From a phage, in the sequence record PZ452583.1: a stretch of 64,000 nucleotides of DNA. One strand, 5' to 3'. Shown in pieces: positions 36,090 through 37,651 of the stretch (the stretch's first letter is position 1; each line of letters begins with the position of its first letter). The position numbers and the translations under genes were made by a program. The notes beneath the pieces are model-generated. The model saw only the letters and a program-made list of their open reading frames with translations. It searched no databases and was not told the origin of the DNA.

Positions 36090-36165
36090 TGGTCGAGGCA
36101 GTAGGGATCGAACCTACGACCTAGGACTTAGAAGGTCCTTGCTCTTCCTTCTGAGCTATGCCCCG
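36090..36165 (-). tRNA. tRNA-Arg (anticodon TCT)
   Basis: Hand-folded cloverleaf, 76 nt, CCA encoded; anticodon loop CTTCTAA; T-loop GGTTCGATCC. Confidence 0.85.
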
Positions 36166-36169
36166 TAAT

Positions 36170-36245
36170 TGGGGTGACCGATGGGAGTCGAACCCATGAC
36201 TACGAGAATCACAATCTCGAGTTCTACCAACTGAACTACGGCCAC
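36170..36245 (-). tRNA. tRNA-His (anticodon GTG); no encoded G(-1)
   Basis: Hand-folded cloverleaf, 76 nt; anticodon loop TTGTGAT; CCA encoded. Confidence 0.8.
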
Positions 36246-36359
36246 ATTAATATCTACTCCAACAATCATGATGTCTTCACACGAAATTAAGAGAAGAGTG
36301 ATCAGTTAAACCCTTATAATCGCGTCAAGTAGATATTAATGTGACAGTTGTCACAAATT

Positions 36360-36434
36360 TGGCGGACGTGATAGGATTCGAACCTATAACCAATCGCTTA
36401 ACAGGCGATCGCTCTGCCATTGAGCTACACATCC
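36360..36434 (-). tRNA. tRNA-Asn (anticodon GTT)
   Basis: Hand-folded cloverleaf, 75 nt; anticodon loop CTGTTAA; CCA encoded. Confidence 0.8.
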
Positions 36435-36438
36435 AAAT

Positions 36439-36525
36439 TGGTGGGGAGTGGTGGAGTCGAACCACCCGAGTCGCAATGACAATGAATTTACAGTCCACAC
36501 CGCTACCTCTACGGGATAACTCCCC
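36439..36525 (-). tRNA. tRNA-Tyr (anticodon GTA), long variable arm
   Basis: 87 nt; acceptor GGGGAGT/ACTCCCC; anticodon loop CTGTAAA; CCA encoded. Confidence 0.75.
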
Positions 36526-36537
36526 TAATTCATAATT

Positions 36538-36612
36538 TGGTGGCCCTGGGTGGAATTGAACCACCATCTGGCGATTATGAGTCGCTTGCTTGAACCTTCC
36601 AGCTACAGGGCC
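36538..36612 (-). tRNA. tRNA with anticodon CAT (elongator Met, or Ile if lysidine-modified as in T4 tRNA-Ile)
   Basis: 75 nt; acceptor GGCCCTG/CAGGGCC; anticodon loop CTCATAA; CCA encoded. Confidence 0.75.
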
Positions 36613-36613
36613 T

Positions 36614-36689
36614 TGGTGCTGATTGACGGAATCGAACCGCCGACCTTCTCATTACAAGTGAGTTGCTCTACCTACTGAGCTAAATCAGC
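36614..36689 (-). tRNA. tRNA-Thr (anticodon TGT)
   Basis: 76 nt; anticodon loop CTTGTAA; CCA encoded. Confidence 0.85.
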
Positions 36690-36694
36690 AAAAC

Positions 36695-36784
36695 TGGCGG
36701 AGGCGATAGGATTTGAACCTATGAGTCGCCGGAGCGACTGCCGGTTTTCAAGACCGGTGCATTAAACCACTCTGCCACGCCTCC
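36695..36784 (-). tRNA. tRNA-Ser (anticodon TGA), long variable arm
   Basis: 90 nt; anticodon stem-loop CCGGT-CTTGAAA-ACCGG; CCA encoded. Confidence 0.85.
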
Positions 36785-36786
36785 AG

Positions 36787-36860
36787 TCTCCATACAAGGA
36801 TTTGAACCTTGGACCTCCTGATCCCAAATCAGGCGCTCTACCAAACTGAGCTACACGGAG
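36787..36860 (-). tRNA. tRNA-Pro (anticodon TGG); 3' CCA not encoded, 2 nt from tRNA-Ser
   Basis: 74 nt; anticodon loop TTTGGGA; Pro-Ser dimeric arrangement as in T4. Confidence 0.8.
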
Positions 36861-36870
36861 TAAATTAAAT

Positions 36871-36944
36871 TGGAGCGGATAATGAGAATCGAACTCACAT
36901 CATCAGATTGGAAGTCTGAGGTAATACCATTATACGATATCCGC
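36871..36944 (-). tRNA. tRNA-Gly (anticodon TCC)
   Basis: 74 nt; anticodon loop CTTCCAA; CCA encoded. Confidence 0.85.
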
Positions 36945-36949
36945 AAATT

Positions 36950-37036
36950 TGGTGCGAGAAGTGGGACTCGAACCCACAAGGAAATCATTCCGCAGCATTT
37001 TAAGTGCTGTGCCTTTACCAATTTGACCATTCTCGC
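36950..37036 (-). tRNA. tRNA-Leu (anticodon TAA), long variable arm
   Basis: 87 nt; anticodon stem-loop CAGCA-CTTAAAA-TGCTG; CCA encoded. Confidence 0.85.
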
Positions 37037-37042
37037 GTTATA

Positions 37043-37651
37043 TTATTTATTACGTGAAAAAGACTGTTCTATCAATTCTGGACACTTTCGTTCTATCCAT
37101 TTTCTAGCTTTTTGTGGGCTTATACCTATTATTTTAGCAGCTTTACTAACCCATCCAAATTTAGAATAATCGATTTTAACTAATTCTTCGTAAATTTCAT
37201 TAGTTAAAATCTTTTCATTAATATTTACCAGTAAATGATATAATTTGTTATCATTAGCAATTTTAATGAATCTTTTATAGTTTCCGCCTTTACTTAAACC
37301 TAATGAAGTAATTGCAGATGATATAGTAGCCGAATTTAATAATGCGTTTAAAATTTCTTCATCACTAACATTATAACGCTTTTTATTATTTTTAATATTT
37401 TTACCAGCAAAAGTATCAGTTTGCGAATGACAGTTTGGACATAATAATCTTAAATTTGATTTAAGATGATTTTTGTTATTTCCATCAATATGGTCTAATT
37501 GCAGAACAATATGCTTATTTTGCCATTTTGAAATTTTACAAATTGCACACTCATATGGAAAAATATTTTCTTTTATTATTTTGTCTTTCAGCTTTCCTGT
37601 ACTAAAATTTGGATGTTTTCCTTCAAAAATTTCAGCTAATTTAGTATCCAT
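37043..37651 (-). mobile_element. HNH homing endonuclease, 202 aa, 7 nt upstream of tRNA-Leu
   Basis: HNH core CAICKISKWQNKHIVLQLDHIDGNNKNHLKSNLRLLCPNCH plus C-terminal helix-turn-helix-like region; ORF-track start is TTG at 37675, first ATG 37651. Confidence 0.8.

Follow-up and report, generated by a model that had tools for sequence, protein, structure and literature searches.

In phage T4 the tRNA region has the order Trna.4-Trna.3-Trna.2, Gln-Leu-Gly-Pro-Ser-Thr-Ile, segB, Arg, rnaC, and in phage T2L (AJ880101) the order is Gln-Leu-Gly-Pro-Ser, trna.1, Met(CAT)-Tyr-Asn-Arg, trna.2, rnaD, rnaC. The preferred site of the T4 endonuclease SegB lies within the tRNA-Asn gene of T2L, and in T4 x T2L crosses the enzyme replaces the whole T2L module with an efficiency of nearly 100% (Brok-Volchanskaya et al. 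2008, PMC2330249). Here we analyse a related locus in a 64,000-nt stretch of the phage record PZ452583.1 (the whole stretch is called the window below), in which an array of tRNA genes and an open reading frame (ORF) for a putative HNH endonuclease occupy positions 36090-37651 of the minus strand. We read the array as a T2L-type cluster in which tRNA-Thr has been retained, a tRNA-His cassette has been added and tRNA-Gln has been replaced by the HNH gene. To the whole reading, that of a tRNA/stable-RNA unit composed as a mosaic of known modules, with a homing-type HNH gene standing in place of tRNA-Gln, we give a probability of about 80%.

By its sequence the genome is that of a Tequatrovirus, a T4-like coliphage. 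The 2.5 kb around the array are matched by 1128 phage records, mostly of Tequatrovirus phages from Escherichia, Shigella and Yersinia, with MLF4 (97.9%), a51 (97.2%) and ACG-C40 (99.1%) as the best matches, and at least 80% of the array is covered in 325 GenBank phage records. Upstream the array is bordered by T4 genes 1, 57A and 57B, the internal head proteins and Trna.2; on the downstream side e.8 to e.2 follow. The ten-tRNA arrangement as such is already known: it is a published variant of the T2L-type cluster, deposited and annotated in dozens of genomes, and the 2012 paper on ACG-C40 mentions "10 tRNAs" clustered at this locus.

The tRNA array and its counterparts in T4 and T2L

ARAGORN finds exactly ten tRNA genes in the window, all on the minus strand between 36090 and 37036 (Table 1), and these are the same ten, in the same order and without a single differing anticodon, that a sequence-only reading of the window had obtained by hand folding. 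Nine of them are matched by Rfam RF00005 at 59-74 bits (gathering score 29); for tRNA-Tyr the Rfam match kept is that to the related tRNA-Sec model, a clan-mate, and lies below threshold, and here the identity of 98.9% to the annotated tRNA-Tyr of T2L supports the ARAGORN call. The three tRNAs which that reading had regarded as additional to the T4 set, Tyr, Asn and His, are consequently upheld, none of them being present in the T4 record, and T4 does possess the eight that it had listed (Gln, Leu, Gly, Pro, Ser, Thr, Ile and Arg), plus segB. ARAGORN finds no tRNA-Gln anywhere in the window, and Rfam gives none either, as had been supposed.

The spacers between the tRNA genes measure, in transcription order, 5, 10, 2, 5, 1, 12, 4, 114 and 4 nt, so that the observation of several genes separated by only 1-5 nt (5, 2, 5, 1, 4 and 4) was correct. 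CCA is encoded in nine of the ten genes, tRNA-Pro being the exception, and the Pro-Ser junction, ...GGAGA-CT-GGAGG..., is the same as in T4 and has the spacing of the T4-type dimeric precursor. The likeness to the T4 Pro-Ser pair, which the earlier reading had proposed, holds for the CCA-less tRNA-Pro and its distance from tRNA-Ser; it does not extend to tRNA-Ser itself, whose end reads ...CTCCGCCA in the window versus ...CTCCGTAA in T4, where CCA is not encoded. Because tRNA-Ser encodes its CCA, only tRNA-Pro of this pair would need CCA addition. A CCA-encoding tRNA-Ser occurs also in T2L-type arrays.

The gene with the CAT anticodon had been left between Met and lysidine-Ile. According to our analysis it is a gene of the tRNA-Ile2 type, because its best match among 5424 E. 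coli genomes is an annotated tRNA-Ile (81.6% along all 75 nt), six of the seven base pairs of its acceptor stem, GGCCCTG/CAGGGCC, are as in that E. coli tRNA-Ile, and its anticodon stem-loop, AGCGACTCATAATCGCC, is identical to that of E. coli tRNA-Ile. It carries G1-C72, and for this reason is not an initiator, together with C4-G69 and C5-G68; the 4-69 and 5-68 pairs are determinants for TilS. The anticodon is presumably lysidine-modified and would then read AUA. In GenBank the label of this tRNA varies, some records calling it Ile2, and T2L and others tRNA-Met.

T4 shares with the window the locus between Trna.2 and e.8, the segment Leu-Gly-Pro-Ser-Thr at about 98% identity, rnaC, the terminator, and the presence of an endonuclease gene among the tRNAs. 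It differs in having tRNA-Gln, in the sequences of its tRNA-Ile and tRNA-Arg, and in the endonuclease, which in T4 is of the GIY-YIG family and is encoded between Ile and Arg. The homology of T4 to the window breaks inside the CAT tRNA and picks up again only at rnaD/rnaC. In this part the window is close to T2L, with identities of 100% for the CAT tRNA, 98.9% for Tyr, 100% for Asn, 97.4% for Arg and 96.3% for the 116-aa ORF, the counterpart of trna.2. As judged from these alignments, the published T2L module, here Ile2-Tyr-Asn-Arg with the 116-aa ORF, fills the slot that segB has in T4 (PMC2330249). In the window the module is interrupted by the tRNA-His cassette, T2L being without the 190 nt (114-nt spacer, tRNA-His and 4 nt) that lie here between Asn and Arg; T2L further has tRNA-Gln at the position of the HNH cassette and the trna.1 ORF at the position of tRNA-Thr. 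The unit may be regarded, then, as a mosaic of the T4-shared Leu-Gly-Pro-Ser-Thr segment, the T2L module, the 190-nt tRNA-His cassette, and rnaD, rnaC and the terminator.

The sequence-only reading had called for a comparison of codon usage in late genes with host tRNA abundance; we compared codon counts in 84 ORFs of the window with at least 80 aa (17,696 codons) and in 34 E. coli genes from a segment of 50 kb (14,216 codons). The strongest enrichment over E. coli is found for AGA (10.4x), followed by ATA (5.5x), GGA (3.7x), AAT (3.6x), ACA (3.5x), TCA (3.1x), TAT (2.8x) and TTA (2.8x), with ACT, CCT and TCT also among the top eleven, and the tRNAs of the array read eight of these eleven codons. 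Relative to the host sample, the frequency of Tyr residues is raised 1.9x and that of Asn residues 1.65x. The codon bias supports a role in codon supply for the Arg, Ile2, Gly, Asn, Thr, Ser, Tyr and Leu tRNAs, which would mainly add decoding of A/U-ending codons, far more frequent in this AT-rich phage than in E. coli.

The HNH gene in place of tRNA-Gln

Phages slur04, G50 and REP4 carry the same ten tRNA genes without the HNH gene, and in them the eleventh gene is a tRNA-Gln(TTG) which abuts tRNA-Leu, as it does in T4. Alignment of the HNH flanks with such HNH-less relatives, which had been advised in the sequence-only reading, sets both junctions to the nucleotide and reveals a stub of the lost gene at the upstream one. 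The position directly 5' of tRNA-Leu, formerly assigned to the HNH ORF, is right, and can now be refined: the 620-nt cassette stands for 66 nt, namely tRNA-Gln nucleotides 8-73 and a 1-nt spacer. At the downstream end the ORF adjoins tRNA-Leu as had been claimed, with 6 nt (TATAAC) between its TAA stop codon and the tRNA-Leu +1. At the upstream end the stub TGGGAAT is followed by CATATT and by the ATG of the HNH gene, and the GGGA of the stub, at a spacing of 8 nt to the ATG, could serve as the ribosome-binding site of the gene. In the literature on HNH genes replacing tRNA-Gln in T4-like phages, where older papers are thinly covered, we found no description of such a case.

The predicted protein has an N-terminal nuclease part with the layout CxxC...DHxDGN...N...CPNCH and a C-terminal helix-turn-helix-like region. 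Its sequence ECAICK...LQLDHIDGNNKNHLKSNLRLLCPNCH aligns with the motif of T5p073, an HNH endonuclease of the T5 tRNA region, and contains the elements of a beta-beta-alpha-metal motif, with the catalytic His (DH), an Asn and a second His/Asn, and with CxxC zinc ligands on its flanks. Among PHROGs it falls into phrog_14736 (E 2e-123), with other HNH PHROGs matching down to 1e-5, and from NCBIfam it receives only a weak match to the HNH region of IscB (E 5e-6). T5p073 is 35% identical to it over 170 aa, has a LuxR-type helix-turn-helix motif and is encoded 23 nt from tRNA-Ile2. Generally, the HNH endonucleases of the T5 tRNA region (F-TflI/II/IV; T5p073) resemble the window protein in joining an HNH part to a C-terminal helix-turn-helix and in being encoded among tRNA genes; they belong to a different phage family and are distant in sequence. 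For the T5 enzymes site specificity has been demonstrated (Akulenko 2004).

The gene is distributed among related phages as follows. A protein at least 95% identical to it is found in 64 phage records, and a 731-nt stretch across both cassette junctions likewise in 64, and from these equal counts every copy of this HNH lineage appears to sit at this one site. The intact Gln-Leu allele is present in 448 records; the HNH-carrying records among the listed matches to the Gln-Leu query match only its flanks, and no examined record has both alleles. Close relatives, in other words, are polymorphic for the presence of the cassette at a single homologous locus. Four array backgrounds bear the cassette, which are the type of the window, the T2L type with trna.1 (Lutter), the T4/segB type (JEP6 and pSe_SNUABM_01), and that of CM8, where another endonuclease gene is in place of tRNA-Pro. 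In six HNH-carrying phages the cassette is 98.7-99.5% identical, and adjacent segments fall to 93.8-94%.

Such a distribution fits a free-standing homing endonuclease with a target in, or at the edge of, tRNA-Gln, and is like that of SegB and other free-standing homing endonucleases of T-even phages; SegB offers the precedent of an enzyme that homes in this very cluster and excludes the T2L module (PMC2330249). In a mixed infection the HNH enzyme would cut or nick the HNH-less allele in or next to tRNA-Gln, and repair from the HNH-carrying genome would copy the cassette in and delete tRNA-Gln, a deletion that would make the carrier immune to its own enzyme. As tRNA-Leu and the genes downstream are 100% identical between the window and HNH-less phages, any immunity of the carrier must stem from the lost tRNA-Gln sequence. 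If so, the replacement of Gln by HNH would illustrate cleanly, in nature, how a homing-type gene spreads at the cost of useful cargo, and its exactness names a candidate target for the enzyme, which is the tRNA-Gln gene.

A number of points weigh against our reading of the locus. There is no co-conversion gradient in the flanks, where phages with and without the HNH gene are equally similar to the window, and the high identity of the cassette could also be explained by a single recent insertion followed by ordinary recombination. With Pfam PF01844 (HNH) the protein scores 17.3 bits, below the cut-off of 21.4, and among PDB sequences it has no meaningful match. The loss of tRNA-Gln looks costly, CAA making up 71% of the Gln codons of the phage, and the 1.8x enrichment of CAA combined with this loss does not fit codon supply. 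The codon comparison itself rests on uncurated ORFs and only 34 E. coli genes, and in it His codons are depleted, at 17.1 versus 24.3 per 1000 (CAT 1.13x, CAC 0.30x).

Considering the missing gradient, one may ask whether the HNH gene is no longer mobile, or never was, being a domesticated or decaying gene which arrived once by illegitimate recombination, with an accidental loss of tRNA-Gln, and which now spreads by nothing but ordinary homologous recombination among co-infecting T-even phages. It is a minority allele, 64 records versus 448, and active homing of a nuclease gene has been said not to be decidable by bioinformatics alone (PMC10448857). We nevertheless consider this course of events unlikely: the ORF is intact and its product at least 98% identical in all copies listed, the catalytic motif is preserved, the gene is found on at least four array backgrounds with flanks diverged by up to 6%, and SegB, in the same cluster, homes with an efficiency of nearly 100%. 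A homing-type gene remains the explanation that we prefer.

Replacements of a similar kind can be seen elsewhere in the cluster. Shigella phage CM8 (2722-3330) has, between tRNA-Gly and tRNA-Ser, a second 202-aa gene, labelled 'homing endonuclease / SegB-like', and as this is the position of tRNA-Pro it represents another endonuclease-for-tRNA replacement. In T2L-type arrays an ORF without known function fills the tRNA-Thr position (T2L trna.1, 584-985; Lutter, 2625-3107). Taking different Tequatrovirus isolates together, three tRNA slots, those of Gln, Pro and Thr, are alternatively filled by protein-coding cassettes.

tRNA-His, the base at -1 and the leader helix

tRNA-His is not accounted for by codon supply, as its codons show no enrichment. 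It is tempting to see in the Tyr, Asn and His tRNAs a counter-defence cargo, standing in for tRNAs of the host which anticodon nucleases cleave or deplete in the course of infection. Colicin E5-type nucleases attack the four tRNAs with GUN anticodons, the queuosine family, and Tyr, Asn and His are among these four; demand leaves tRNA-His unexplained, His codons being under-represented in the phage. For Asn and Tyr, in contrast, the enrichment of AAT (3.6x) and TAT (2.8x) is already an explanation by codon demand, the four phages compared do not differ in the anticodon loop of their tRNA-Tyr, CTGTAAA, and in the window we identified no nuclease-resistance feature and found no direct evidence of such a role. 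For the extra tRNAs the idea is a reasonable one, as a phage tRNA can take over from a host tRNA that an immunity nuclease has destroyed: compensation for tRNA-cleaving immunity nucleases has been proposed for phage tRNAs in the BF23 paper, and T5 tRNA-Tyr, to which tRNA-Tyr of the window is closely related, rescues the toxicity of retron Eco7 (BF23 paper). For the present array we regard it as doubtful.

The tRNA-His gene has a peculiarity at its 5' end. It is 80% identical to E. coli hisR, and with its C73 and CCA it has T at -1, where E. coli hisR has the G that is encoded in bacteria. T at -1 was found in every phage tRNA-His examined, among them those of Karamvirus, Jiaodavirus-like, Winklervirus and Kagamiyamavirus phages, Aeromonas phage PX29, T5 and a mycobacteriophage. 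The cassette to which the gene belongs is a 190-nt indel, cleanly lost in some relatives and common to other Tevenvirinae genera.

The 114-nt spacer preceding tRNA-His is predicted to form a long helix that runs on into the beginning of the tRNA. The strand GUCACAUUAAUAUCUACUU (36345-36327) pairs with GAGUAGAUAUUAAU-GUGGC (36259-36241) in 19 contiguous bp, and the helix passes through U(-1) into nucleotides +1 to +5 of tRNA-His. Such pairing does not exceed 9 bp in the other nine tRNAs of the array, or 12 bp at 5000 random positions. The predicted folding energy of the leader is -31 versus -19 kcal/mol for shuffled sequence (z = -3.8), and its G-U pairs make sense on the tRNA-sense strand only. 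About 95 nt of the spacer are conserved 5' of tRNA-His in Tevenvirinae genera, with a different flanking tRNA (Asn versus Gln). In the 14-bp closing stem 140 of 140 cells are paired across ten distinct variants, with compensatory changes at four pairs, whereas in controls, where the partner was shifted by 1-3 columns, pairing is only 40-54%. In several variants the interior of about 65 nt has been swapped for unrelated sequence and the stem has been kept. The leader belongs to no Rfam family.

A pattern scan of IMG/VR for the leader/His junction gave nine loci, of which one is spurious. In Escherichia phage 236Ecol005PP (1492-1620) the leader is kept and tRNA-His is lost save for its first 3 nt, so that the leader now stands directly 5' of tRNA-Arg; this natural deletion variant may be useful for asking what the leader does. 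We also considered the 114-nt Asn-His spacer as a decayed tRNA-Gln, an idea prompted by labels of the type 'tRNA-His | tRNA-Gln' in Klebsiella phages, and rejected it, as the match reaches no more than the final 2 nt of a tRNA-Gln that is a separate gene further upstream, and both ARAGORN and Rfam are empty in the spacer.

T5 provides a parallel (region 6279-6398 of the T5 sequence L034). Directly 5' of tRNA-His its record has a 106-nt feature, 'RNA III, stable RNA with unknown functions'; the tRNA-His annotated there begins with the T of -1. The helix predicted there has 20 bp and includes tRNA-His +1 to +5, as does the 19-bp helix in the window; the leader interior of T5 has no detectable sequence similarity to that of the window, and stability is annotated for T5 only. 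The 5' end of RNA III, U6390 (L034), pairs with A6287, and its annotated 3' end is U6285, so the ends, known from annotation, leave a 2-nt 3' overhang, which fits the signature of RNase III. E. coli RNase III has been reported to take part in the maturation of T4 tRNAs, and both helices (19 bp in the window, 20 bp in T5) reach the approximately two turns of uninterrupted double-stranded RNA that mark an RNase III site.

From these data it would be logical to suggest, though only tentatively, that tRNA-His of the T-even-like and T5-like kind never encodes G-1, and that the leader helix makes its precursor a substrate of RNase III rather than of RNase P, yielding a stable leader RNA and a 5'-phosphorylated U-1. 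Host RNase III would cut the leader helix and free the leader RNA, and the staggered cut would leave tRNA-His with the 5'-phosphorylated U-1; by analogy with T5, one cut in the window might lie at 36247/36246 and the other at 36338/36337. Were this true, it would amount to a second means, so far undescribed, of supplying tRNA-His with the additional 5' nucleotide required by the histidyl-tRNA synthetase (HisRS). The arrangement seems undescribed: in the literature on T5 RNA III and on phage RNase III with tRNA-His, in which older papers are thinly covered, we found no description of it. If confirmed, the leader helix would bear on the question of how a phage tRNA-His without G-1 can be chargeable, and on the long-unexplained 'stable RNAs' of T5 and T4.

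The same features may be taken to mean that the cassette is not an ordinary tRNA gene at all, its product being a poor substrate of HisRS without G-1, and that the tRNA or the leader of about 95 nt acts as a regulatory or decoy RNA, as has been suspected likewise for the stable RNAs of T4 and T5. The T at -1 in all phages examined versus G in E. coli hisR, the lack of enrichment of His codons, the conservation of the leader with compensatory changes, the stable 'RNA III' annotated at the equivalent place in T5 and the clean loss of the cassette in some relatives would all agree with this. We find it improbable, however, in view of the GUG anticodon, the C73, the encoded CCA and the 80% identity to hisR, all of which have been kept, and of the fact that T5 tRNA-His with a replaced anticodon is an efficient amber suppressor (T5 record), from which it follows that T5 tRNA-His is charged and used in translation; a retained U-1, moreover, may satisfy HisRS.

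Transcription unit, neighbouring genes and closest known arrays

The features of the locus are collected in Table 1.

Table 1. Features of the tRNA locus of PZ452583.1, in transcription order; positions are those of the window
Feature	Position	Strand	Remarks
Candidate MotA-dependent (T4 middle-type) promoter	37734..37760	-	TTTGCTTTA, 12 nt, TATTAT; read from sequence
tRNA-Gln 5' stub, 7 nt	37658..37664	-	TGGGAAT; alignment with slur04, G50, T4
HNH cassette	37038..37657	-	620 nt; homology with HNH-less relatives ends at 37037 and restarts at 37658
Putative HNH (His-Me finger) endonuclease ORF	37043..37651	-	202 aa; ATG at 37651, stop at 37043-37045
tRNA-Leu(TAA)	36950-37036	-	CCA encoded; identical to T4; ARAGORN, Rfam
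tRNA-Gly(TCC)	36871-36944	-	CCA encoded; ARAGORN, Rfam
tRNA-Pro(TGG)	36786/36787-36860	-	no encoded CCA; 2 nt (CT) before tRNA-Ser
tRNA-Ser(TGA)	36695-36784	-	CCA encoded at 36695-36697; T4 has TAA there
tRNA-Thr(TGT)	36614-36689	-	ARAGORN, Rfam
tRNA-Ile2 type, anticodon CAT	36538-36612	-	identical to T2L gene annotated 'tRNA-Met'
tRNA-Tyr(GTA)	36439-36525	-	long variable arm
tRNA-Asn(GTT)	36360-36434	-	counterpart in T2L holds preferred SegB cleavage site
Small hairpin	36341-36354	-	upstream hairpin at the tRNA-His leader
Predicted structured tRNA-His leader	36241..36345	-	19-bp helix 36345-36327 / 36259-36241 around ~65 nt
tRNA-His(GTG)	36170-36245	-	C73 and CCA encoded; T, not G, at -1
tRNA-Arg(TCT)	36090-36165	-	T2L type; sequence unrelated to T4 tRNA-Arg
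116-aa ORF	35721..36071	-	T2L trna.2; phrog_3355
rnaD-like region (species II stable RNA)	35604..35724	-	both ends only match T2L rnaD
rnaC (species I stable RNA)	35458..35598	-	97-98% identical to T2L and T4
Intrinsic terminator	35386..35409	-	10-bp G+C-rich stem and TTTTT; closes the tRNA/stable-RNA unit

About 80 nt before the HNH gene, still within the 3' end of an inserted 171-aa ORF, there is a promoter-like sequence on the same strand, and in the record of phage Lutter a promoter is annotated at the equivalent place; on these grounds the HNH gene and the tRNAs are probably on one transcript. A cut by RNase P at tRNA-Leu would in that case sever the HNH mRNA 6 nt past its stop codon, an arrangement like the expression-limiting one proposed for SegB and the T5 endonucleases (PMC2330249). 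A scan for sigma-70 promoters gave 24 hits versus 18.4 expected from shuffled sequence, which is not above expectation, and was not used. Most likely a single precursor is cut by host enzymes, in steps that we suppose by analogy with T4: RNase P would act at the 5' ends, exonucleases and the CCA-adding enzyme on tRNA-Pro, and the His leader may be cut by RNase III. An Rfam scan of 33000-41000 (E<=1) detected no known ribozyme, small RNA or other family in the Asn-His spacer or in the rnaC/rnaD region.

The DNA on either side of the unit differs from that of relatives as well. The 36-nt terminator hairpin at the end of the unit is duplicated (34822-34857 and 35377-35412, 94% identical, 555 nt apart), and the two copies bracket a 157-aa ORF (34862-35335, phrog_2280). 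This ORF is found in slur04 and a51 but not in T4 or ACG-C40, and has the look of a cassette that came in together with a terminator copy of its own. Upstream, relative to T4, ACG-C40 and slur04, an insertion of 518 nt (37771-38288) is found at the extreme 3' end of Trna.2, where it alters the last codons of the Trna.2 homologue. Its 171-aa ORF (37751-38266, minus strand, phrog_2290) occurs also in a51 and CM8 and has no Pfam or NCBIfam match. In the slot held by Trna.3 in T4 and all ten relatives compared, the window has at 38562-39424 a segment without DNA similarity, with ORFs of 126 aa (38559-38939) and 136 aa (39014-39424) on the minus strand, neither of which has an NCBIfam match.

The closest known arrays are those of ACG-C40, a51, MLF4, slur03/14 and HY03, which have the same ten tRNAs and the same HNH gene at 97-99% identity over the 2.5 kb, and the records of ACG-C40 and a51 annotate ten tRNAs and an 'HNH endonuclease' in the order of the window. 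ACG-C40 differs from the window only in neighbouring ORFs, being without the 171-aa ORF upstream of the HNH gene and without the 157-aa ORF past the terminator. The locus described here takes its place, accordingly, among T-even tRNA clusters that are known, from GenBank and from the 2008 SegB paper, to be mosaics reshuffled by selfish endonuclease genes.

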